DNA of 64,000 bases from Bacteroidota bacterium (GTDB lineage Bacteria; Bacteroidota; Bacteroidia; Chitinophagales; Chitinophagaceae): the NCBI GenBank assembly GCA_023429825.1, contig JAEZDC010000035.1, positions 3,003-67,002 of the forward strand. The letters are read 5' to 3'. The notes beneath the pieces were generated by a model, which was given only the letters and a program-made list of their open reading frames with translations, was not told the DNA's origin and ran no database searches. Positions within the stretch are counted from its first letter, which is position 1. The number at the start of each line of letters is the position of its first letter. Positions 5,103 to 51,560 of this stretch are shown here, piece after piece. The position numbers and the translations under genes are program-made.

Positions 5103-5183
5103 AATCGTCAAGTGTAAATCGCGAATCAAGCTATAGTTTCCCGCCTCCAACCTCCAACCTCCAATCTACCGCCTCCAGCCTCA
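5103..5183. repeat. phase-locked degenerate heptamer array (about 12 units) abutting the hmgA stop codon
   Basis: Units read aatcgtc aagtgta aatcgcg aatcaag ... Three perfect cctccaa units follow (5144-5164), then tctaccg and cctccag. The array runs into tta (the hmgA stop, 5184-5186). Confidence 0.7.
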
Positions 5184-6341
5184 TTACTCAGCCCAACTCA
5201 TCACGTACCCCTCGTTCTCTATCTCCAATGCTGCAACTGTTAACTGTAAAGGATGAAAAGTATCCACCATCACCGCCAGTTCTTTTGTTTCTGTTTTGCC
5301 AATGCTCTTTTCGACAGCACCAGGATGTGGCCCATGCGGGATCCCTGCAGGATGTAATGTGATCATTCCCCGTGTAACATTCTTCCTGCTCATGAAATCA
5401 CCATCCACATAATACAACACCTCGTCGCTGTCTATATTGCTATGATTGTAAGGAGCCGGAATTGCCTGCGGATGATAATCATACAGCCTCGGCACAAAAC
5501 TGCACACTACGAAATTGTGTGCATCAAATGTCTGATGAACAGGTGGCGGTTGATGTACTCTACCGGTTATCGGTTCAAAATCATGAATGCTGAAGGCAAA
5601 AGGATAACAACACCCATCCCAGCCAACCACATCAAAAGGATGATGGCCGTAATGAATACCATACTGTATTCCTTTCTTTTTCGTCTTTATCAGGAAATCA
5701 CCTTTCTCGTCCATAGTAATTAAATTCTGTGGCGGACGAATATCTCTTTCACAATAAGGTGAATGCTCCAGCAGTTGCCCGTATTTACTCAGGTATCTTT
5801 TTGGAAAACGAATAGGACTAAAAGATTCTACAATGAACAACCTGTTATCCGCTGTAGCGAAATCAATTTGATAGATCGTTCCTCTTGGTATCACCAGGTA
5901 ATCTCCATAACTAAAACTCAGATCGCCGTACATTGTTTTCAGCACGCCATTTCCTTCATGCACAAAGATCATCTCATCAGCATCGGCATTTTTATAGAAG
6001 TATCCTTCCATGCTTTTTTGAGGTGCTGCTAATATTATATGGCAATCATTATTAACCAGCACTGCTTTTCGGCTTTGCAGGTAATCCTGTTCAGGCTTTA
6101 CCTTAAAACCCTCCAGGCTCCTGTGCTTGAGCATTCGTTCTTCCGCAACTTTGGGCATCACGTTTACAGGTTCATCTGTACCAATGATAGCAGTAGGCGG
6201 ATGCACATGATACAGTATAGAATAATCGTTACTGAATCCTTCAGTAGAAAATAATTGCTCTGAGTACAGGCCGCCATCCTTTTTTCTGAATTGTGTATGG
6301 CGCTTATGCGGAATGCTTCCCAGTTTATGATAGTAAGGCAT
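5184..6341 (-). CDS. hmgA: homogentisate 1,2-dioxygenase
   Basis: 385-aa ORF. The N-terminus MPYYHKLGSIPHKRHTQF, the cupin-like core and the overall length are typical of Bacteroidota HmgA. Confidence 0.88.
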   Translation of the reverse strand: MPYYHKLGSIPHKRHTQFRKKDGGLYSEQLFSTEGFSNDYSILYHVHPPTAIIGTDEPVNVMPKVAEERMLKHRSLEGFKVKPEQDYLQSRKAVLVNNDCHIILAAPQKSMEGYFYKNADADEMIFVHEGNGVLKTMYGDLSFSYGDYLVIPRGTIYQIDFATADNRLFIVESFSPIRFPKRYLSKYGQLLEHSPYCERDIRPPQNLITMDEKGDFLIKTKKKGIQYGIHYGHHPFDVVGWDGCCYPFAFSIHDFEPITGRVHQPPPVHQTFDAHNFVVCSFVPRLYDYHPQAIPAPYNHSNIDSDEVLYYVDGDFMSRKNVTRGMITLHPAGIPHGPHPGAVEKSIGKTETKELAVMVDTFHPLQLTVAALEIENEGYVMSWAE

Positions 6342-6348
6342 GGTTGTA

Positions 6349-6383
6349 AATTAATAGTGGAGAATTAACAATTAATAATTGAG
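6349..6383. repeat. heptamer array just upstream of the hmgA start
   Basis: Five contiguous 7-nt units: aattaat agtggag aattaac aattaat aattgag. Confidence 0.6.
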
Positions 6384-8745: not shown

Positions 8746-9558
8746 ATGAAACAGTTGTTCGCAGCGATATGCATTTTAGTAACACTATTTTCCTGTAAAG
8801 ACAAGAGTGATGAGACCCGGAAAACACCGGGGGAAAGTGAGTTACCTGCTAACGTGAGAAGCCTTATGGAAAGAGTGAAAGCTCACCCGGACAGTATCAC
8901 CTATCGCCTGCAACTGGTAGAGGCCCTGGACAGCTTGAAGATGTACAATGAAGCGCTGGCTAATATGGATACTGTCATTCGCAAGGATAGCATCAACAAC
9001 GCTTATTGGTTTCGAAAGGCACAGCTTGAAGAAAGTGTGAAAGACACAACTGCTGCAATTAATTCATATCTCAAATCTATCAGCATCTATCCTGCGGTGG
9101 ATGCGCAGTTATACCTGGCCAACCTGTTAGCTGAAAGGAAAGATGAGCGGAGTTTGCTTATAGTGAATAATGTATCTCGAAGTATGTTTGACAGCAGGAC
9201 GCTGGCCGAATGTGATTTCATTGCCGGGATATACCATGCCCGCACGAAGAATTATAAAATGGCTGATGATCTTTTCGACAGGTGTATTAAAAATGATAGA
9301 AAGTTCATGGAAGCCTATGTTGAAAAAGGATTATTGCTCATGGACCAAAACAGAACGCCTGAGGCGATGATCGTTTTCCATTTGGCCACAACCGTTGAAC
9401 CCACCTATGCAGATGCATGGTATTATGAGGGTAAATGCCTGGAGCGTTTAGGGAAAGTAAAAGAAGCGATCCAACGTTACGAAGAGAGCCTGAAGTATGA
9501 TCCGCAACTACAGGAAGCGAAAGATGCTTTATCTAAATTGAGATCACAGCAGGGGTAG
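8746..9558 (+). CDS. TPR-repeat lipoprotein
   Basis: Signal peptide with lipobox (LVTLFSC). TPR-like repeats include AWYYEGKCLERLGKVKEAIQRYEESLKYDP. Confidence 0.75.
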   Translation: MKQLFAAICILVTLFSCKDKSDETRKTPGESELPANVRSLMERVKAHPDSITYRLQLVEALDSLKMYNEALANMDTVIRKDSINNAYWFRKAQLEESVKDTTAAINSYLKSISIYPAVDAQLYLANLLAERKDERSLLIVNNVSRSMFDSRTLAECDFIAGIYHARTKNYKMADDLFDRCIKNDRKFMEAYVEKGLLLMDQNRTPEAMIVFHLATTVEPTYADAWYYEGKCLERLGKVKEAIQRYEESLKYDPQLQEAKDALSKLRSQQG

Positions 9559-9569
9559 TTGAGGACAAT

Positions 9570-9681
9570 AGGCGGCAGGCGGTCGGCTATAGGCAGGTGG
9601 TTGTGATGTTAGTCACTATCGACTATCAACTATAACCTGCAACCTGTATCTTGCAACCTTTAATCGTTAACTCCATCTACC
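9570..9681. repeat. drifting heptamer tandem array (16 units) ending exactly at the rpe ATG
   Basis: Units read aggcggc aggcggt cggctat aggcagg tggttgt gatgtta gtcacta tcgacta tcaacta taacctg caacctg tatcttg caacctt taatcgt taactcc atctacc, followed directly by ATG at 9682. Confidence 0.7.
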
Positions 9682-10329
9682 ATGCCCATCATCGCTCCAT
9701 CATTATTAAGTGCTGATTTTCTGAATTTGAAAAGAGATTGCAACATGCTGAATGAAAGCCAGGCAGACTGGTTTCATTTAGATGTAATGGATGGAAGATT
9801 TGTGCCTAACCTGAGTTTTGGATTGCCTGTGATAGAACATATAAGGAAAGCCACCAAAAAAGTTTGCGATGTACACCTGATGATCCTTGAGCCGGAGAGG
9901 TATGCAGAAGCTTTTAAAAATGCAGGAGCAGATGTACTCACTGTTCATATCGAGGCTTGTACACATTTGCATAGGAATGTGCAGCAAATAAAGAGTTTGG
10001 GAATGAAGGCCGGCGTGGCACTCAATCCGCATACACCAGTAAGCCAGTTAAGCGATATTCTTCATGATATCGATCTCGTTTGTTTGATGAGTGTGAACCC
10101 CGGGTTCGGCGGACAAAAGTTTATCGAGTTCACTTTGGAGAAAACAAAGCAATTACGAAAAATGATCTCTGATAAAGGACTAAATGTTCATATCGAAATT
10201 GATGGGGGAGTTACGGTTGAAAATGCACCTGCTATTCTCTCGGCTGGCGCCGACGTGCTGGTGGCAGGCAATACCGTATTTAAATCCACAGATCCTACAG
10301 CCACCATAGCCAAATTGAAGGCGCTTTAA
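9682..10329 (+). CDS. rpe: ribulose-phosphate 3-epimerase
   Basis: 215 aa. MPIIAPSLLSADF..HLDVMDGRFVPN..MSVNPGFGGQKF..IEIDGG are hallmark Rpe motifs. Confidence 0.92.
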   Translation: MPIIAPSLLSADFLNLKRDCNMLNESQADWFHLDVMDGRFVPNLSFGLPVIEHIRKATKKVCDVHLMILEPERYAEAFKNAGADVLTVHIEACTHLHRNVQQIKSLGMKAGVALNPHTPVSQLSDILHDIDLVCLMSVNPGFGGQKFIEFTLEKTKQLRKMISDKGLNVHIEIDGGVTVENAPAILSAGADVLVAGNTVFKSTDPTATIAKLKAL

Positions 10330-10392: not shown

Positions 10393-10605
10393 CTGAAGTG
10401 CGTATAGAAATATGCGAAGAGCGCATAAAATAATGCGAAGTGTGCAAGAAACCATGCTAAACTCGCATGATAATGGCTGAAGGGCGTTTGGCAATAGTCG
10501 AAGTGCGTACAGAAACAGTCAAAGAGTAAATGGAAATGGTCAAAGCATGCATGAAACCAGTTGAATCAAGCACGACAACAGGCAAAGGGCGCATGAAAGG
10601 TGGAG
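10393..10605 (+). repeat. degenerate tandem array with an exact 21-bp period, 10 units
   Basis: The GAAG/AAAG anchor falls at 10395, 10416, 10437, 10458, 10479, 10500, 10521, 10542, 10563 and 10584, so every step is exactly 21 nt. A typical unit is tcGAAGtGCGtAcaGAAAcag. Stops occur in all frames. Confidence 0.75.
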
Positions 10606-10621
10606 CTGGGAACTTATAGAT

Positions 10622-10650
10622 AAAAAAAACCCCTCCAGGAGGAGGGGTTT
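10622..10650 (-). terminator. intrinsic terminator of the T9SS cargo gene
   Basis: aacccctcc (10628-10636) pairs with ggaggggtt (10641-10649) across a 4-nt loop. An A8 run on the plus strand is the T-run on the minus strand. Confidence 0.8.
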
Positions 10651-10671
10651 CAACTTATTGATCAAAAAAGC

Positions 10672-20462: not shown

Positions 20463-20469
20463 AGCAAAA

Positions 20470-20492
20470 AGCATGAGCTCTCACTCATGCTT
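20470..20492 (+). terminator. probable terminator of the pentapeptide gene
   Basis: agcatgag pairs with ctcatgct (8 bp) across a 6-nt loop. The T-tract is short. Confidence 0.5.
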
Positions 20493-20833
20493 CCTGAATT
20501 ATCTGCATCAATTGGGGTTGCCGTTAAAACGACACAATGCAGCGCAATCATAGGGTTTTACACCAGCATAGGTACGGATTCAGCATTCAATAGGGTAGAA
20601 TCAGTTATAGGGTATGTATATTTCGTAAACAGGGTATGTATATCGTTCCGTAATTCGAGTGCAAGATGGCTCTAATTCCCCTCTCTACATATTAAATACT
20701 ACTACATATAGATTAAATCTACACTTATAACAATGCTTATAAATTAAAGGCATATAAAAGAACGAATCCCAGGTATTGACTATCAACGTATGTGCAGTTC
20801 GACCTCTTCTACCTTAAAACTATCCTGTAACAC

Positions 20834-21065
20834 TTAGACGGGCTGGTGTTGCTGTTAGGAAGCTTAGTGTACTGCTTCGAAAGGTTAGAGAACTGCAAGA
20901 AAGGAGAGCGATGGTCTTCGAAAGGTTAGTGTAAATCTGCGTAGGGCTAGGTACTGCTTAGAAACGTTAGTCTACTGCTTTGAAAGTTAAGTGTCCCTTT
21001 TCACTGGCTTAGTGTTGGTCTTAGACAGGTAAGTCCTGCTCTTAGATGGCTTTGTGCGTCTTCGA
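20834..21065 (-). repeat. about 21-bp periodic degenerate array (about 11 units), inverse orientation of the 10.4-kb array
   Basis: Two interleaved series of TTAG/TTCG-like anchors each step by about 21 nt (occasionally 20 or 22). They fall at 20834, 20855, 20876, 20917, 20958, 20979, 21021 and 21042, and at 20864, 20885, 20926, 20947, 20967, 20987, 21009 and 21030. The unit gcTTAGtgtactgcTTCGaaag has reverse complement ctttCGAAgcagTACActaagc, which resembles tCGAAgtgcgTACAgaaacag. Confidence 0.65.
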
Positions 21066-21255
21066 TTTCATGTTTTGCTTCGCTGAAGCACCCATCTGAT
21101 CAGATTTCTGCCGTCCGGACCTTGGCTATTTAGCCTCAAAAACCGGTTTTGTCCCGCCAAAGAGCATGTTCGTGTAACGTTTTTCGATAAGCTTTTGAGG
21201 CCAAATACGTTTGCACTGTCATTAACAAATCACATCACACTAAAAAATAACTGTT

Positions 21256-23700
21256 ATGAAATTGTTCTTACTCTTGTTGGCAAACCTGGTAGTGTTCTGG
21301 GCAACCGCACAGGTGAGCGGGTCAATCAAGGATGCAGAAGGTAAACCCGTGAGCGGCGTAACCATCAGCCTGTTAAATGATTCTGCAGTAGTAAAACTAT
21401 CTGCCACAAAAGAAAACGGGACTTATTCATTTTCCGGCATCAAATCCGGAACATATAAGTTGAGTGCATCGCACGTTGGATTTACACCATTTATGTCTGC
21501 CCCTTTCACTGTAGATGGATCAGATGTTTCAGTTCCTGAGATCAAACTTGTAAAAGCCGTATCTAATGTACAGGGTGTAACTGTTACTGCACGTAAACCT
21601 ATCATTGAAATGAAGGCCGATAAAACGATCTTAAATGTTGAAGGTACTATCAATGCAATTGGCAGCGATGCATTGGAGTTACTTCGTAAAAGCCCGGGTG
21701 TACAGGTAGATAAAGACGATAACCTCAGCATCAGTGGTAAAAACGGCGTACAGGTATATATAGATGGAAAACCAACGCCATTAGCAGGAGCTGATCTTGC
21801 CAACTACTTAAAGACAATGCAGAGTTCACAGATAGAAGCGATAGAGATCATTACCAATCCTTCTGCTAAATATGAAGCTGCAGGTAATGCGGGTATCATC
21901 AATATCAAATTGAAGAAGAACAAAAACTTTGGTACTAACGGAAGTGTGAATGCAGGATGGAATGTAGGTACTTACGCGAAGTATAACGCAGGTGTTTCTT
22001 TGAATCATCGCGATAAGAATGTGAACATATATGGTAATTACAATCAGAACAGGAGTAAGAATGAAAGTGGAATGAATATACACCGTACTTTACTTGATAC
22101 GATTTTCAACCAGAAGGGGAATATAGTTTTCAACAATGTCGCTCATAATTTTAAAGGAGGTCTCGATATTACGTTGAACAAGCGTTCATCTATCGGTGCA
22201 ACTGTCAACGGCAATTTTGCTCAGCCAAGAGTATCTAACTATAGCAGAACCCCGATCACTTATAAGCCTACTAATACTGTGAACAGGATATTAGTGGCTG
22301 ATAATAGAAATGCATCTGAGAGAGAGAACCTTAACCTTAACCTGAATTATAACATCACTGGCAGTAAGGGGAGTAATCTCACGTTGAATGTGGATCATGG
22401 TTATTATAAGATAGATAACGATCAATACCAGCCGAATATATACTATGATGCTACAGAACAAAATAAATTGAGCTCAGTAGCTTACCAGATGATAACACCA
22501 ACCAGGATCAACATCTCGTCTTTCAAATATGATTATGAAAGAGACCTGTGGAAAGGGAAGATCAGCTGGGGTGGGAAATCTGCTTACATCAAAACTGATA
22601 ACGATTTCCAACGTTATGATCTATTGACAACCGGAAAGCAATTGGATAAGGACAGGAGCAATCGGTTTAAATATAAGGAGCAGATCCATGCCAACTATCT
22701 CAACTATAACAGGGCGTTCAAAGGTGGAATGTTCCAAGTGGGTGTGAGAGTTGAAAATACGACAACAGAGGGTACATCTACAGGATTAAAGAATACTGGT
22801 GGAGTATACACACCTTCAGCTTCATCATTCAAGAGGGAGTACACAGATGTGTTCCCTAGCGCAGCGATCACTTTGAACAAAAATCCAATGAAGCAATGGA
22901 GCTTCACTTATAGCAGGAGAATAGACAGGCCAGCTTACCAGGATCTGAATCCATTCGAATTCAAATTAGATGAGTACACTTTCCAGAAAGGTAACACTGA
23001 GCTTCGCCCGCAGTATACCAATAGCTTTGGAATCACACATACCTATAAGTATAAACTTAACGTAACAGCTAACTATAGCCATGTGAAAGATATCTTCACA
23101 CAATTGATCGATACAACAGAAAGGTCTAAATCATTTGTAACGAGAAAGAACCTGGCAACACAGGATGTGATCAGCCTTAATATTAGCTACCCTGTTATGT
23201 ATAAATCATTCACTTCTTTCATCAACCTGAACACCAACTACTCGATGTACAATGCGAATTTTGGAGCAGGACGTACAGTTGATGTGAATGCATTTGCTTT
23301 AGGCATATTTGCTCAGAACAGCTATAAGTTCGGTAAGACGAAAGCATGGACAGCAGAAATGACTACAATGTTCTCTGCACCTACTGTAATGATGGGAACG
23401 TTTAAAACGAAAGCAATGGGTGGTGTAGACCTGGGCATGCAAAAGCAGGTAATGAAAGGAAAGGGTACAATCAAGGCATCAGTGAGTGATGTTTTCAAAA
23501 CAATGCGTTTTAAAGCAACTACTGACTTTGCCGGCCAAAAAACAAATATTGTTTCTAATTGGGAAAGCCGTCAGCTAAAGCTAAGCTTCAACTGGAGATT
23601 TGGTAACAACCAGGTGAAAGCTGCAAAGCAAAAGGCGAGTGGTGCAGAAGATGAGAATAAAAGGGCGCAAGGCGGTGGCGGAATGGGAATAGGACAATAA
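21256..23700 (+). CDS. outer-membrane beta-barrel family protein (TonB-receptor-like, CarbopepD_reg N-terminus)
   Basis: 814 aa with a signal peptide. It has QVSGSIKDAEGKPVSGVTISL, a plug-like region and a long barrel. The Gly-rich tail is unusual. Confidence 0.78.
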   Translation: MKLFLLLLANLVVFWATAQVSGSIKDAEGKPVSGVTISLLNDSAVVKLSATKENGTYSFSGIKSGTYKLSASHVGFTPFMSAPFTVDGSDVSVPEIKLVKAVSNVQGVTVTARKPIIEMKADKTILNVEGTINAIGSDALELLRKSPGVQVDKDDNLSISGKNGVQVYIDGKPTPLAGADLANYLKTMQSSQIEAIEIITNPSAKYEAAGNAGIINIKLKKNKNFGTNGSVNAGWNVGTYAKYNAGVSLNHRDKNVNIYGNYNQNRSKNESGMNIHRTLLDTIFNQKGNIVFNNVAHNFKGGLDITLNKRSSIGATVNGNFAQPRVSNYSRTPITYKPTNTVNRILVADNRNASERENLNLNLNYNITGSKGSNLTLNVDHGYYKIDNDQYQPNIYYDATEQNKLSSVAYQMITPTRINISSFKYDYERDLWKGKISWGGKSAYIKTDNDFQRYDLLTTGKQLDKDRSNRFKYKEQIHANYLNYNRAFKGGMFQVGVRVENTTTEGTSTGLKNTGGVYTPSASSFKREYTDVFPSAAITLNKNPMKQWSFTYSRRIDRPAYQDLNPFEFKLDEYTFQKGNTELRPQYTNSFGITHTYKYKLNVTANYSHVKDIFTQLIDTTERSKSFVTRKNLATQDVISLNISYPVMYKSFTSFINLNTNYSMYNANFGAGRTVDVNAFALGIFAQNSYKFGKTKAWTAEMTTMFSAPTVMMGTFKTKAMGGVDLGMQKQVMKGKGTIKASVSDVFKTMRFKATTDFAGQKTNIVSNWESRQLKLSFNWRFGNNQVKAAKQKASGAEDENKRAQGGGGMGIGQ

Positions 23701-36807: not shown

Positions 36808-37206
36808 TTAGTTGAACTGAACAGGGATCTTGCCGAGAAAAGCAAACACAGCAATAATGATGAGTACTACAGCAGTGAACGTTAGTATAGTGGGTGTAAC
36901 CTTTGTCCATTTGCTGTTGATATAATATTTATTCGGCTCTGCGGGATCGTACACCAATGTAACCTGTTGACCTTTCTTAAAAATGCCGCCTGGATAACTC
37001 GTATTGGATCGTGCGGTTATCCATTCGTTTTGTAGCGTTAAAAATCTTACTACAGGATATAATCTTCTTCCATCATCTTCAAAGTCAAATATCACACCAT
37101 CTGCAGGTAAACCATTTTGAAATGCTTTGCTTAAACGGTTACCTACAATTCTTGCGAGTATCAATGTGCCTATACCACCTAGTAAAAGAATAAATCCTGT
37201 TATCAT
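36808..37206 (-). CDS. DUF3592-like membrane protein
   Basis: 132 aa with N- and C-terminal TM helices flanking a small beta domain (..YPVVRF..V.YDP..P). Confidence 0.6.
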   Translation of the reverse strand: MITGFILLLGGIGTLILARIVGNRLSKAFQNGLPADGVIFDFEDDGRRLYPVVRFLTLQNEWITARSNTSYPGGIFKKGQQVTLVYDPAEPNKYYINSKWTKVTPTILTFTAVVLIIIAVFAFLGKIPVQFN

Positions 37207-38465
37207 TTAAATATTACTTGAACAGTATCTGTTGTTTCCTGCTGCAATAGTAATTGTTTTCCCTGCATCATTTTATCAAGAAGTTCTTTATTAAAATGAC
37301 GGATAGTAAGCAGGCTCAATCCTTTTTCTACATCCACATCAAATATTTCTGCGGCATAAGAAGCTAGCTGGTTGATCTTGTCACTCCTGTCATCTAAACA
37401 TAACTGTACGCTGATCGCTCCTGTCTGAATAAGATTGGGCTTGAACTTTAGCTGGGCGAATATCTCGTACAATCGGCTCATTGGCTTTTCACCCACGAAA
37501 GAAAAATCCTGGCTGTGCAGATGCATCAACACCTGGTTTTGTTTGATGACCACGATAGGGGGCAGGTTCTTTATTTTTTTATTAGCGATAGTTGTACCCG
37601 GTAAAGAAGGATCTACAAAACATTTTACATGCAATGGAATGTTCTTATTCTGCAACGGCTTGATCGTTTTTGGATGTATTACCTGGGCACCATAGTATGC
37701 CATTTCGATCACTTCATTAAAGCTGAGTTCACTAATAAATGTAGCTTCAGGAAACTCTTTGGGATCGGCGCTCATTACACCTTCTACATCTTTCCAGATA
37801 GTTAAACTTTCTGCATTTAATAAGTTGGCAAAAATTGCCGCGGTGTAATCACTTCCTTCCCGGCCCAGGGTGGTGCTTTCATTCTCGTCCGTAGAGCCGA
37901 TAAATCCCTGAGTAAGATAAATATTGGATGACGGGTTGCTGTCAGATATTAGATGCTGAATGCGCTCCGAGGTATAATTCCAATCAACAGTAGCATCTCT
38001 GAAATTATCGTCTGTACGAATGATATCTCTTACATCCAACCATTGATTGGTCACATTAACTTCATTAAGGTAATGACTAACGATCGCTGTACTTAGTAAT
38101 TCACCCACACATACCACCTGGTCGTAGTAATAATCAAATTCTCTTTGTGGCTTATCATGTAATAACCATTCTACTTCCGTGAAAAAATCATTCAGTTGCG
38201 TGTAGCATTGGTTATAGTTTTTTACAAGAAGATATTTTGCTGTTGTGAGATGCTGATCTCTTATGGTATGAAATAGGGATATCGCCTGTTCTTTATTGCC
38301 TGCATAAAAAGCTTCGGCCACTTTTTCCAAAGCATTCGTGGTTTTACCCATGGCTGAGATGATCACTACCAGATGCTCATTGCTGTAATTCTGAAGAATA
38401 GAAGCTACATTTTTGATCCTGTCTACACTGTTTACGCTGGCCCCGCCGAATTTGAAAACTTTCAT
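37203..38465 (-). CDS. lysC: aspartate kinase
   Basis: 420 aa with MKVFKFGGASV.., ..ISAMGKTTN.., ..LGREGSDYTAA.. and a C-terminal ACT-like region. Confidence 0.9.
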   Translation of the reverse strand: MKVFKFGGASVNSVDRIKNVASILQNYSNEHLVVIISAMGKTTNALEKVAEAFYAGNKEQAISLFHTIRDQHLTTAKYLLVKNYNQCYTQLNDFFTEVEWLLHDKPQREFDYYYDQVVCVGELLSTAIVSHYLNEVNVTNQWLDVRDIIRTDDNFRDATVDWNYTSERIQHLISDSNPSSNIYLTQGFIGSTDENESTTLGREGSDYTAAIFANLLNAESLTIWKDVEGVMSADPKEFPEATFISELSFNEVIEMAYYGAQVIHPKTIKPLQNKNIPLHVKCFVDPSLPGTTIANKKIKNLPPIVVIKQNQVLMHLHSQDFSFVGEKPMSRLYEIFAQLKFKPNLIQTGAISVQLCLDDRSDKINQLASYAAEIFDVDVEKGLSLLTIRHFNKELLDKMMQGKQLLLQQETTDTVQVIFK

Positions 38466-38591
38466 ATTGATGAATGGTCAATGGTGATTGGTGAATGCGG
38501 TTGCAAAAGTCGGGCAAAAATGTTGATACAAGGGCGTAAAGAAATAAAGTCGCAAAGGCGTTGAATGGGAATTGGTGCTATGGTTGCAAAA

Positions 38592-44064: not shown

Positions 44065-44111
44065 CTGCGCCGTATCTGCTTCGGCATAGCGCTACAGCAG
44101 ATACGGCGCAG
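44065..44111. repeat. perfect 15-bp inverted repeat with 17-nt loop
   Basis: ctgcgccgtatctgc (44065-44079) and gcagatacggcgcag (44097-44111) are exact reverse complements. The repeat lies in the folC upstream spacer. Confidence 0.8.
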
Positions 44112-44113
44112 AC

Positions 44114-44200
44114 CCCTATCAAATCCGAATCAAACCCTAGCCAAAGTCCCTATAACATCCCTATAAAAACCCTATAAGGTCCCTATAACGTCCATATATC
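44114..44200. repeat. about 11-bp phased CCCTAT(A) array (8 units)
   Basis: ccctat/ccgaat/ccctag/ccctat x4/ccatat start at 44114, 44125, 44135, 44148, 44159, 44170, 44181 and 44192. Confidence 0.7.
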
Positions 44201-48756: not shown

Positions 48757-48772
48757 CCGCAAATTAGAATTG

Positions 48773-50443
48773 ATGACAACATTCAGTGAAGTAGGGTTAG
48801 ATGAAAGATTAGTGAAAGCAACAGATGCTTTGGGATTTGTGAACCCGAGCCCGATACAGGAGAAAGCTATTCCTGTGCTTTTAAGCGGAACAAAAGATTT
48901 TGTGGGGCTTGCTCAAACCGGAACCGGTAAAACCGCAGCGTTCGGGTTGCCGTTATTGCAGTTAATGGATACGAAGCAACGTTTTCCGCAAGCATTGGTT
49001 ATATGTCCTACCAGAGAATTGTGCATGCAAATAGTAAACGATATTGAACAATTCAAAAAGTTCATACCGGGCATGCATGTAGTTGCTGTGTATGGTGGTG
49101 CATCTATCAGCACACAAGTTCGGGATATCAGGAAAGGGGTGCAGATAATCGTAGCTACTCCCGGACGCTTGATCGACCTTATTGAACGTAAAGCGATCAA
49201 CCTCGAAGAGATAAAGTATGTAGTGTTAGATGAAGCCGACGAAATGCTGAACATGGGCTTCCAGGAAGATATTGAATTTATTCTCCAAAATACACCGAAA
49301 AGGGAAGCCACCTGGCTATTCAGTGCAACGATGCCGCCTGAGATCAGGCGAGTGAGTAAACGGTACATGAAACAACCTTTCGAGGTGACCGTTGGAAAGG
49401 CAAATACAGGAAGTAAGAATATCGATCACCAGTATTATGTGATACAGGCGCAGCATCGCTATGAAGCATTGAAGCGATTGATCGATTTCAACCCCGGTAT
49501 CTACGGGATCATCTTTACCAGAACAAAGCTTGACGCACAAGATATTTCTGAAAAACTTACAAGGGAAGGATACGACATTGATGCATTGCATGGAGATCTA
49601 ACGCAGGGGCAAAGAGATAAAGTAATGAGCGCTTTTAGAGAAAGAACATTGCAATTGCTAATCGCAACAGATGTAGCAGCAAGAGGTATCGACGTAAAAG
49701 AAATCACCCATGTGATCAACTATGAATTGCCTGATGATGTTGAAGTGTATACGCATCGAAGTGGAAGAACAGGTCGTGCAGGAAGCACTGGTATATGTAT
49801 GAGTCTTGTGCATGCAAGAGAGACATATAAGCTGCGTACCATCGAGAAAATGGTGCAGCAGCCATTTCACAAACTGGAGATTCCCAGCGGTAAAGATGTT
49901 TGCCGTAAACAGTTCTTCTTTTTCATGGACAAACTGTTGCAAACAGATATCTCTCATGGTGACTACGAAACATATTTACCAATGCTGCAGGAGAAGTTCG
50001 CAGATGTAAGTAAAGAGGAAGTATTGCAAAGAGTAGCTGCGTTAGAGTTTGACAGGTTCCTGAAATATTATGAGAACTCTGGTGATTTGAATGTCAGAGA
50101 TCAAAAAAGAGATAAAAGAGATGCTTCGGGAAATAGCAGGGATCGTGATCGCAGTGAAAGAAGAGATGGGAGAGGAGATAATCGTCGTCAGTCGAATGGC
50201 AATTTCAGTCGTTTGTTTGTGAACCTTGGAACAAAAGATGGTTTTTATAAAGCGAGTTTCCTTCAGTTCATTTTGGATATGAGCGATCTTAAAAAAGATG
50301 TACTTGGAAGGATCGATATGAAAGAAATGAATAGCTGGATAGAGATCGATGCCAAAGCTGCAAAACAAATGATCAGATCACTTGATGGTAAAAATTTTAA
50401 GGGAAGGAAGATCAGGATGAATGATGCGGACAGCAGGAGGTAA
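48773..50443 (+). CDS. deaD: DEAD-box ATP-dependent RNA helicase (DeaD/CsdA-like, DbpA-type C-terminal RNA-binding domain)
   Basis: It has the motifs AQTGTGKT, PTRELC, DEAD, SAT and HRSGRTGRAG. It has a basic RD-rich linker and a C-terminal ..IDMKEMNSWIEID..LDGKNFKGRKI. Confidence 0.9.
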   Translation: MTTFSEVGLDERLVKATDALGFVNPSPIQEKAIPVLLSGTKDFVGLAQTGTGKTAAFGLPLLQLMDTKQRFPQALVICPTRELCMQIVNDIEQFKKFIPGMHVVAVYGGASISTQVRDIRKGVQIIVATPGRLIDLIERKAINLEEIKYVVLDEADEMLNMGFQEDIEFILQNTPKREATWLFSATMPPEIRRVSKRYMKQPFEVTVGKANTGSKNIDHQYYVIQAQHRYEALKRLIDFNPGIYGIIFTRTKLDAQDISEKLTREGYDIDALHGDLTQGQRDKVMSAFRERTLQLLIATDVAARGIDVKEITHVINYELPDDVEVYTHRSGRTGRAGSTGICMSLVHARETYKLRTIEKMVQQPFHKLEIPSGKDVCRKQFFFFMDKLLQTDISHGDYETYLPMLQEKFADVSKEEVLQRVAALEFDRFLKYYENSGDLNVRDQKRDKRDASGNSRDRDRSERRDGRGDNRRQSNGNFSRLFVNLGTKDGFYKASFLQFILDMSDLKKDVLGRIDMKEMNSWIEIDAKAAKQMIRSLDGKNFKGRKIRMNDADSRR

Positions 50444-50474
50444 TTAGCGAATTAGCAAATGAGACAATTAGCAA

Positions 50475-51560
50475 ATGGAGGCAACATCAACACAACAGGA
50501 AAAATTGACTACAGTTTGGAATAAACGACCGCTCATAATCAGCGGGCCGTGTTCAGCTGAAACAGAAGAACAGGTTTTAGAAACAGCGCTGCGGTTGAAA
50601 GGCACTGGTAGGGTGGACATGCTCAGAGCCGGGATATGGAAACCCAGGACCCGCCCCGGAAGTTTCGAAGGAGTAGGAGCGAAGGGTTTGAACTGGTTAA
50701 TGAGTGCAAAAAAGCAAACTGGCTTACCTACAACCGTTGAAGTGGCTACAGGCAAGCAGGTAGAAGATGCATTACATTTTGATGTAGATGTATTATGGAT
50801 CGGGGCTCGAACTACAGTGAATCCTTTTAGTGTGCAGGAAGTTGCCGATGCATTAAGAGGTGTAAATGTGCCGGTGCTTATCAAAAACCCCATCAACCCC
50901 GATCTTGAATTGTGGACGGGTGCTGTAGAACGTGTTGCAAAAGCGGGTATCGAAAACATTGGGCTTATCCATCGTGGCTTTAGTTCATATGGTAACACAG
51001 AATATCGCAATGCACCCATGTGGCACCTGGCGATTGAGATGAAAAGAAGAAACCCGGGTATGATGCTGATCTGTGATCCTTCACATATCAGTGGCAGAAG
51101 AGATATATTATTAGATGTTTCGCAAAAGAGCATCGATCTTGATTATGATGGATTGATGATCGAATCACATATTGATCCGGACAATGCATGGAGTGATGCG
51201 AAGCAACAGATCACTCCTGAAACATTAGCAAAACTATTAGATCAAATCCAGTGGAGAGTAGAGACCATAGATGAGAAAGCATTCGTGGTGGCGCTGGAAC
51301 GACTGAGAGACCAGATCAATCATGTAGATGATGAGTTATTGCAACTGCTTGGTCAACGAATGAAAATTGCTGACAAAATCGGAGAATATAAAAAAGCGAA
51401 CAGCATCACCATTTTGCAAACGAGTCGCTGGAATGAGATATTAGAAAGAGCAATGGCAAAGGGAGAGAAGTTGGGCTTAAGTAAAGAATTCATTGTAAAA
51501 TATTTTGATGCCGTGCATATGGAAAGCATCAATCATCAGAATAAAATAATGAATAGTTAG
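50475..51560 (+). CDS. bifunctional 3-deoxy-7-phosphoheptulonate (DAHP) synthase / chorismate mutase
   Basis: 361 aa. It has a type I-beta DAHPS core (..ISGPCSAE..GIWKPRT..CDPSHI..) and a C-terminal AroQ chorismate mutase (LERLRDQINHVDDELLQLLGQRMKIADKIGEYKK). Confidence 0.87.
   Translation: MEATSTQQEKLTTVWNKRPLIISGPCSAETEEQVLETALRLKGTGRVDMLRAGIWKPRTRPGSFEGVGAKGLNWLMSAKKQTGLPTTVEVATGKQVEDALHFDVDVLWIGARTTVNPFSVQEVADALRGVNVPVLIKNPINPDLELWTGAVERVAKAGIENIGLIHRGFSSYGNTEYRNAPMWHLAIEMKRRNPGMMLICDPSHISGRRDILLDVSQKSIDLDYDGLMIESHIDPDNAWSDAKQQITPETLAKLLDQIQWRVETIDEKAFVVALERLRDQINHVDDELLQLLGQRMKIADKIGEYKKANSITILQTSRWNEILERAMAKGEKLGLSKEFIVKYFDAVHMESINHQNKIMNS

Follow-up and report, generated by a model that had tools for sequence, protein, structure and literature searches.

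What occupies the gap between a TPR-repeat protein gene and rpe in this genome, and how did a run of drifting seven-nucleotide units come to lie there? The window, by which we mean the whole 64-kb stretch of DNA that was analysed, carries both genes on its plus strand. The upstream TPR gene spans 8746..9558 in the list of open reading frames and ends with the stop codon TAG at 9556-9558, and rpe (9682..10329) encodes a ribulose-phosphate 3-epimerase of 215 aa, with PF00834 found on an identical protein. Tblastn confirmed 592 relatives of rpe, and the best genome relatives belong to the Chitinophagaceae (Segetibacter, Sediminibacterium, Ferruginibacter and others); the window itself comes from a metagenome-assembled genome of this family. 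Homologues of the TPR gene are 71-72% identical and below, 72% being the closest in a protein search, and a metagenome scan for close relatives of this gene returned only three distant loci. TPR Pfam families are present on the identical gene of two contigs that also share an identical Rpe (L001 and L002).

An earlier note on this DNA had divided positions 9570-9681 into sixteen contiguous, phase-locked heptamers that run exactly up to the rpe start codon. The sequence and the division were quoted correctly and the gene downstream is indeed rpe, while the exact length of sixteen times seven arises because the division begins at 9570: the full gap between the genes measures 123 nt (9559-9681), of which the division covers the last 112 nt. 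The similarity between neighbouring units, also pointed out in that note, is well beyond chance. Identity at lag 7 over 9570-9681 is 0.533, compared with 0.247±0.042 in dinucleotide-preserving shuffles, and none of 5000 shuffles reached the observed value; the signal stays significant when every shuffle is allowed its best lag from 2 to 30. Identity then declines to 0.42, 0.35 and 0.25 at lags 14, 21 and 28, reaching baseline by lag 28 and so fading over about three units. Counted unit by unit, the matches between successive heptamers are 6, 4, 3, 3, 1, 3, 4, 6, 4, 6, 4, 3, 4, 3 and 2 out of 7, with about 1.7 expected by chance. The period of seven is thus real, but it is confined to two blocks, at approximately 9570-9594 and 9614-9670. 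The stretch that joins these blocks shows little periodicity, and the similarity of units 5-6 and 15-16 is at or close to what chance would give. Likewise the rpe ATG does follow the last unit directly, but the final 11-14 nt before it are non-periodic, at chance level. Where arrays touch an ATG in other genomes, the phase in which they end is not fixed.

The two blocks differ in composition. The left block (9570..9611, plus strand), delimited by lag-7 identity, consists of G-rich heptamers after the stop codon, AGGCGGC AGGCGGT CGGCTAT AGGCAGG, followed by TGGTTGT GATGTTA, which show little similarity to their neighbours. Its lag-7 identity of 0.49 against 0.30±0.07 (p=0.009, or 0.05 when corrected for the choice of lag) is marginal when taken alone. 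The right block (9612..9667, plus strand) is C/A-rich and G-poor, with the units GTCACTA TCGACTA TCAACTA TAACCTG CAACCTG TATCTTG CAACCTT TAATCGT, and Tandem Repeats Finder (TRF) reports rows within it at 9615-9633 and 9634-9659. Over the right part of the spacer as a whole (9612-9681), lag-7 identity is 0.57 compared with 0.28±0.055 (p<3e-4). The last 14 nt before the rpe ATG (9668..9681, plus strand; TAACTCC ATCTACC) form a G-free leader whose periodicity is not significant; these two units match their neighbours at 3/7 and 2/7 positions, near chance, and lag-7 matches are absent over most of this segment. No Rfam family matched at gathering score anywhere in the 64-kb window, and a sigma-70 promoter scan of the spacer, made with a model unsuited to Bacteroidota, gave nothing above shuffle level.

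Similar behaviour had been claimed for four other gene boundaries, and all four pass the shuffle test. At 5103-5183, lag-7 identity is 0.58 against 0.28, with a strong portion at 5144-5183 (0.76 against 0.37) in which TRF calls a (TTGGAGG)n array of period 7 and 5.6 copies on the minus strand, the sense strand (5144..5182); it begins 1 nt past the stop codon of the minus-strand gene 5184..6341. The start of the same gene is preceded by a weak, AT-rich period-7 stretch (6349..6383, minus strand), recognised by lag-7 identity (0.61 against 0.35; p=0.002, or 0.013 after correction for lag choice) and not called by TRF. Upstream of the gene 37203..38465 lies the array CATTCAC CAATCAC CATTGAC CATTCAT, written in the sense of that gene (38466..38500, minus strand; period 7, 3.9 copies, TRF span 38471-38497). 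Here lag-7 identity is 0.71 against 0.29, and the array ends 4-5 nt ahead of the ATG and downstream of TTTTG boxes, the upstream sequence including ACATTTTTGCC and GACTTTTGCAAC; the array is probably in the 5' leader of this gene. The octamer version, at 50444-50478 (lag-8 identity 0.67 against 0.29), corresponds to a TRF array of AATTAGCR with period 8 and 4.4 copies (50442..50476, plus strand), which bridges the stop codon of 48770..50443 and the ATG of 50475..51560. TRF therefore calls four of the five sites independently (5144-5182, 9615-9659, 38471-38497 and 50442-50476). In a scan of the whole window, the three strongest period-7 segments were all intergenic and adjoined a gene end, while shuffled windows gave 0.1.

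The arrays of the window share no unit with each other, and none of their units was found elsewhere in the 64 kb. Probes of two units from each rpe block found only themselves, plus scattered hits with one or two mismatches and no tandem context. Each unit being unique to its own spacer, a dispersed repeat of the REP/BIME or MITE kind is ruled out.

We then surveyed 719 kb, consisting of the window and 85 loci from relatives. Of about 100 tandem arrays with at least three copies, 58 have period 7 and another 19 have period 8. Arrays of these two periods are largely intergenic (70 of 84, in a sample with 19% non-coding sequence; p=1.6e-36) and concentrate at gene ends, 54% of them lying within 8 nt of one compared with 27% under uniform placement (p<2e-4). 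Those that adjoin stop codons number 31 and those that adjoin start codons 14, and in 10 cases a pre-start array ends 0-6 nt from the ATG. By spacer type, arrays are least frequent in divergent, start-start spacers (3%) and most frequent in stop-start spacers (16%). Chitinophagaceae-like loci contain 10.6 arrays per 100 kb, compared with 1.3 in the others, which form a small control.

Composition follows position. On the sense strand, G exceeds C in 21 post-stop arrays and falls below it in 8, whereas C exceeds G in 13 pre-start arrays and falls below it in one (Mann-Whitney p=9e-6); the background skews after stops and before starts are only +0.01 and −0.04. Both rpe blocks agree with this polarity, the left one in its G-richness after the TPR stop codon and the right one in its G-poverty ahead of rpe. 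In addition, for 18 of 70 arrays a partner in inverted orientation lies no more than 150 nt away, an 18-fold excess over the 1.0±1.0 expected. Such pairs fold as long hairpins (z from −6 to −10) that start 1-4 nt past stop codons and lack a U-tract.

Autocorrelation of intergenic DNA against shuffled controls had been suggested as a check, with peaks expected at 7, 14 and 21 nt. When 328 spacers (40 kb) were pooled, these peaks appeared (z=13.8, 11.2 and 7.6, respectively), and among the 253 spacers without a TRF hit the lag-7 z fell to 1.3, so the signal stems from discrete arrays in about one quarter of spacers. This loss of signal once array-bearing spacers are removed rules out a pervasive period-7 code in all spacers. 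The units are diverse, with 40 canonical types among 51 arrays; identical units at different loci nevertheless form 12 pairs, compared with 2.1 after shuffling. This modest excess of identical or near-identical units over shuffle level implies some sequence preference.

We next compared the spacer upstream of rpe across relatives. Many of 80 related genomes carry heptamer arrays there, with units unrelated to one another: GGTCAAT in 6 copies (L015), AATTCAT in 14 (L019 and L022), TAACCAG in 8.6 (L024), TTAATTC in 5 (L035) and AATTCTA in 8 (L048), along with decayed arrays in L006, L031, L040 and L069. Arrays were found in 12 of 53 rpe-upstream spacers and in 33 of 353 other spacers, a 2.8-fold enrichment (p=0.008). 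Arrays are absent from all rpe spacers up to 60 nt long and present in 9 of the 23 between 60 and 150 nt, a pattern consistent with arrays having been inserted into short spacers and having made them longer.

The earlier note had also proposed that unit number be compared between orthologous spacers. In the nearest relatives (L086 and L087, with TPR proteins 71-72% identical) the spacer is 61-63 nt long and likewise heptameric but has fewer units, TGCTGGA TACTGGA TGTTGAA GCTAACT GTAACCA CAAACTA AAAACTA CAAACTT, which run from G-rich to C/A-rich in the same order as in the window. A MAFFT alignment to these two places about 29 nt (the AGGCGGC units) and about 31 nt (TATCTTG and leader) as extra sequence in the window, neither of them an exact multiple of 7. 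The metagenome contigs L001 and L002, on the other hand, are copies from the same strain; over 6.6 kb their identity to the window is 100%, which makes them uninformative on unit-number variation. Iterative local duplication with mutation, one of two origins offered for the array when it was first noticed, is supported: identity declines from lag 7 to 14 to 21, the nearest relatives have a shorter spacer with fewer units, and in more distant relatives this spacer is occupied by perfect arrays whose heptamers are unrelated.

The right block also contains a promoter-like box. TATCTTGC (TATCTTG(C); 9647..9654, plus strand), recognised by motif conservation as a candidate −7-type box for rpe, coincides with unit 12 of the array and sits at −35 from the rpe ATG. 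It is one T short of TAnnTTTG, the −7 box of Bacteroidetes sigma-A promoters, which, among 445 upstream regions, is most frequent 10-39 nt upstream of start codons. Of 83 loci, 16 have TATCTTG in the 70 nt that precede the rpe ATG, compared with 0.45 expected, and in relatives this heptamer lies mostly at −24/−25 from the ATG, often as TATCTTGCAnnGCAAA. We infer that rpe has its own promoter within the right block and that its leader would comprise only the last ~20-25 nt of the spacer. In several other genomes, and at 38466-38500 in the window, an array lies between a −7-type box and the ATG, so that the array itself would form the leader. In L031 the box is iterated in tandem as TATCCTG TATCTTG TATCCGG TATCTAA.

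It had been thought that no described element class has this form. Intergenic heptanucleotide repeats are in fact in the literature (Mrazek 2007; Mazel et al. 1990; PMC4679880; PMC4692102), and the rpe spacer belongs to this class. As relayed in later papers, heptanucleotides are the most abundant long simple sequence repeats (SSRs) in many bacteria, with polymerase slippage as the proposed origin (Mrazek 2007 via PMC4679880, PMC4692102), and tandem heptanucleotides (STRR) were reported in Calothrix and other heterocystous cyanobacteria (Mazel et al. 1990 via PMC4692102). The closest match is to the long SSRs with units of 5-11 nt, of which heptanucleotides are the commonest class according to the available accounts (Mrazek, Guo and Shah 2007; Huang and Mrazek 2014, PMC4060949). 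The rpe array has a tandem unit in this range, is over-long for its composition and comes with a lineage-wide intergenic excess. As those accounts describe them, long SSRs are, like the arrays here, tandem 7-nt units, statistically over-long and intergenic, with many unit sequences per genome; they occur in free-living bacteria with large genomes and are proposed to arise by slippage. By the same accounts, the array in the window differs in being strongly decayed instead of perfect, and gene-end polarity lies outside their description of long SSRs. In the 2007 survey, as reported in PMC4679880, the ten genomes richest in 5-11-nt repeats came from Burkholderia, cyanobacteria, actinobacteria and Xanthomonas, with no Bacteroidetes among them, and the papers compared here make no mention of Chitinophagaceae.

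Two further systems resemble the arrays. TAACTGA arrays end beside start codons in Beggiatoaceae, cyanobacteria and five Bacteroidetes, with a reverse-orientation set after stop codons and shorter spacers in repeat-free relatives (MacGregor 2015, PMC4679880). Like ours, they are short heptamer arrays, some interrupted by related 7-mers, in a fixed sense orientation and ending a few nt from the start codon; unlike ours, they have one dominant unit per genome, whereas here each spacer has its own (PMC4679880). Horizontal transfer was proposed for TAACTGA (PMC4679880), while the Chitinophagaceae arrays give indications of local origin. With up to two mismatches allowed, tandem TAACTGA is absent from the window and has two near-matches in the 719 kb. 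The second system comprises the G-rich heptamers GGGAATC and GGGGA(T/C)T of Xanthomonas and Nostoc, which include inverted pairs and vary in length among close relatives (Rehm 2015, PMC4692102). The STRR and Xanthomonas repeats share with our arrays the intergenic tandem arrangement and a length and sequence that vary among close relatives at the same gene pair, and the Xanthomonas heptamers in particular share the G-rich versions and some inverted pairs capable of forming stem-loops; they differ in having a few unit families at ~100 copies per genome (PMC4692102), in contrast to the locus-specific units seen here in a member of Bacteroidota. The heptamer repeats of cyanobacteria, Xanthomonas and Beggiatoaceae thus have widespread counterparts in a large Bacteroidota family. 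What is new is how prevalent they are in Chitinophagaceae, that each locus has its own units, and the measurement of three regularities: adjacency to gene ends, a G/C polarity with respect to the adjacent gene and a frequent inverted partner.

We consider it most probable, at about 0.72, that the rpe spacer consists of two heptanucleotide SSR arrays, old and partly decayed, that were generated by slippage and filtered for composition. Slipped-strand mispairing during replication would gain or lose 7-nt units; mismatch repair copes well with loops of 1-3 nt but poorly with longer ones (PMC4060949). Since 7 is not a multiple of 3, such arrays would be restricted to non-coding DNA and would persist only in non-coding spacers. 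By extending spacers that were originally short, they could come to fill a gap from stop to start. Point mutation followed by re-duplication of adjacent units would then produce the drifting consensus. Selection would filter composition and not sequence, leaving a G/T-rich sense strand after stops and a G-poor, C/A-rich one before starts. Bacteroidota do not use Shine-Dalgarno pairing, and G-poor arrays before start codons would be expected because their leaders lack it. At rpe, one unit of the right block would be the −7 promoter-like box and the final units would serve as a short, G-poor leader, while the G-rich left block may pair imperfectly with the right block in a weak hairpin. The array itself most probably lacks any function that depends on its sequence and would act through spacer length, leader composition and possibly the 3'-end structure of the upstream transcript. 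Some observations sit uneasily with slippage: the process itself was not observed, the only other copies of this strain being identical, and the two indels of ~29 and ~31 nt are not multiples of 7. The sense-strand polarity and the excess of inverted partners are unexplained by neutral slippage and point to selection or a further mechanism, and the 2.8-fold enrichment of arrays upstream of rpe is likewise not predicted by neutral slippage alone.

The alternative that survives best, which we still regard as unlikely, makes the two blocks the arms of a functional stem-loop: the G-rich post-stop block would pair with the C-rich one to end or stabilise the TPR transcript, or to mask the rpe leader in read-through RNA. 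The putative rpe promoter would lie in the 3' arm. The 18-fold excess of inverted partners and the strong hairpins that they form argue for such a role in general, as does an orthologous convergent spacer near rpe, in which four genomes (L004, L005, L008 and L057) carry inverted arrays of differing units where L026 has a canonical terminator (A-tract, GC-hairpin, T-tract) and L020 a GC-rich hairpin. Inverted arrays indeed resemble intrinsic terminators and REP/BIME elements in forming stable hairpins straight after stops and between convergent genes; they differ in having no U-tract, stems made of tandem repeats and no dispersed family, and the hairpin at rpe is weak. RNA folding of the spacer suggests that the G-rich and C-rich blocks may form an imperfect hairpin (9593..9647, plus strand; loop near 9615-9620). 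The centre of the spacer, 9586-9650, folds at −20.2 kcal/mol (z=−2.8, with 1 of 200 shuffles as stable), a 65-nt sub-window picked after the fold had been seen, and the whole spacer is no more stable than its shuffles (z=−1.1 to −1.5). Exact inverted repeats of at least 9 nt are absent from the spacer. A terminator scan of 9559-9681 found no terminator-like site and no T-tract, although the same scan detects a canonical one at 10651..10626. Nor are stop-start spacers with arrays significantly more structured than those without (median fold z −1.24 and −0.32; p=0.32). A central hairpin in the rpe spacer is therefore possible but weak.

A broader proposal, which we hold to be similarly doubtful, is that Chitinophagaceae build and retune the signals at gene boundaries from locally amplified heptamers, the rpe spacer being a decayed example that holds both parts. 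If so, the two arms of inverted arrays would expand together to give 3' hairpins that replace canonical terminators, and G-poor arrays would provide unstructured, Shine-Dalgarno-free leaders of adjustable length. The strict polarity, G/T-rich after stops and C/A-rich before starts, would be held by selection, and the rpe promoter box would have been recruited from the array or copied into it.

Returning to slippage with compositional filtering as the preferred reading, the other origin first offered for the array, a periodic recognition code, fares considerably worse and appears improbable. The heptamers would here be iterated 5' UTR sites, bound either by an RNA-binding protein (S1, Csp, CsrA-like or RRM) or by a DNA-binding regulator. 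A similar idea was proposed for the Beggiatoaceae TAACTGA and Nostoc heptamer repeats, and deletion of heptamer repeats altered the output of a Nostoc recO reporter (bioRxiv 10.1101/2022.06.06.494920). Arrays adjoin start codons beyond chance with a consistent pre-start orientation and composition (13 of 14 with C>G), several lie between a −7 box and an ATG and hence in transcribed leaders, and similar units recur somewhat more than expected. Against such a code, the arrays have no unit in common: 40 canonical types are spread over 51 arrays, the units of the window are unrelated and none recurs, and tandem TAACTGA is essentially absent. Period-7 signal is missing outside detectable arrays (z=1.3), stop-adjoining arrays outnumber start-adjoining ones, and most of the rpe array lies upstream of the predicted −7 box and so would be outside the rpe leader.

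We give still less weight to a contingency locus, in which changes in unit number would alter promoter geometry or leader length and switch rpe in a phase-variable manner. The −7-like box is an array unit, is tandemly iterated in L031, and stands at −35 in the window compared with −24/−25 in most relatives, all of which would suit such a switch. SSRs that are interrupted seldom slip, however, and the rpe array is highly interrupted; rpe is moreover a housekeeping gene. Long SSRs of 5-11-nt units are also, as relayed in PMC4679880, typical of free-living non-pathogens and not of phase-variable pathogens (Mrazek 2007). Finally, a chance pattern in low-complexity sequence has practically no probability left: any 112-nt stretch can be divided into sixteen heptamers and units 5-6 and 15-16 are at chance similarity, but the shuffle tests refute it at the locus (0 of 5000, best of lags 2-30 included), in the window (three period-7 segments against 0.1) and in the pooled spacers (lag-7 z=13.8).

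Cultured Chitinophagaceae whose known leaders and 3' ends carry perfect arrays would offer a tractable system for distinguishing neutral slippage debris from tunable leaders and terminators. On a practical note, the arrays break assemblies and shift spacer lengths, which affects the prediction of start sites and operons.

Downstream of rpe, the ribulose-phosphate 3-epimerase gene, we found a 342-nt spacer in the window that contains 21-nt units (GAAGTGCGyATAgAAataTGC) at 10395-10457 and 10499-10520. A canonical terminator, GAAACCCCTCC-tcct-GGAGGGGTTTT and then a T run, lies on the minus strand at 10651..10626. Long composite spacers also occupy the position 3' of rpe in three of the rpe loci taken from related genomes, L005 (4649-5011), L008 (4649-4990) and L057 (4649-4828). 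Arrays of (GTGARAN)n, (GTGAATG)n or (CGTGAGG)n stand at the head of these spacers, immediately 3' of the rpe stop codon, and their reverse complements are present further along.

We also compared one orthologous convergent-gene spacer across six of these loci. Inverted short tandem arrays form a hairpin in L004 (5894-5978), L005 (5999-6074), L008 (5981-6071) and L057 (5852-5912), and the units of these hairpins differ among the four. Of the remaining two spacers, L026 5716-5789 and L020 5753-5852, one holds a canonical bidirectional terminator and the other a GC-rich hairpin.

Within the window, GG doublets make up both of the arrays that follow stop codons, AGGCGGC at 9570-9600 (+) and TTGGAGG at 5144-5182 (−), and AGGCGGT-like units are common to the two. 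Judged by their sequence, both arrays have a putative potential for two-tetrad G-quadruplexes. The TTGGAGG units hold GGAGG, which by sequence resembles a Shine-Dalgarno core. A search of the entire 64-kb window against Rfam returned no families at gathering score.

Repeats with longer units occur elsewhere in the window. A 21-nt unit (GAAAGGTTAGTGTACTGCTTC) is present in 6.5 imperfect copies at 20860-20994, inside a gene-free stretch (20463-21255) of 793 nt that lacks long ORFs, lies upstream of an 814-aa ORF (21256..23700) and also carries short AGGGTA-containing repeats at about 20550-20640. An 11-nt unit (TCCCTATAACA; 4.7 copies at 44147-44198), adjoined by a GC-rich palindrome at about 44066-44112, sits in the spacer separating two minus-strand genes.

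The conserved box upstream of rpe is longer in L003, L014, L017, L029, L037, L050 and L054, where it reads TATCTTGCAnnGCAAA, includes a small TTGC/GCAA dyad and precedes the rpe ATG by about 24 nt; GCAAA has been lost from this extended box in the window. In the window, boxes of the TAnnTTTG class frequently start just 9-13 nt ahead of a start codon, a spacing that implies that leaders are very short.

Finally, the taxonomic labels of two of the assembled genomes look doubtful. L004 (CALRLC020000001.1) is labelled Brevundimonas vancanneytii, and its Rpe protein is 80% identical to that of the window and ranks among the best Chitinophagaceae matches; L077 (CALRVY020000158.1) is labelled Pseudanabaena sp., and its Rpe is 67% identical to that of the window.
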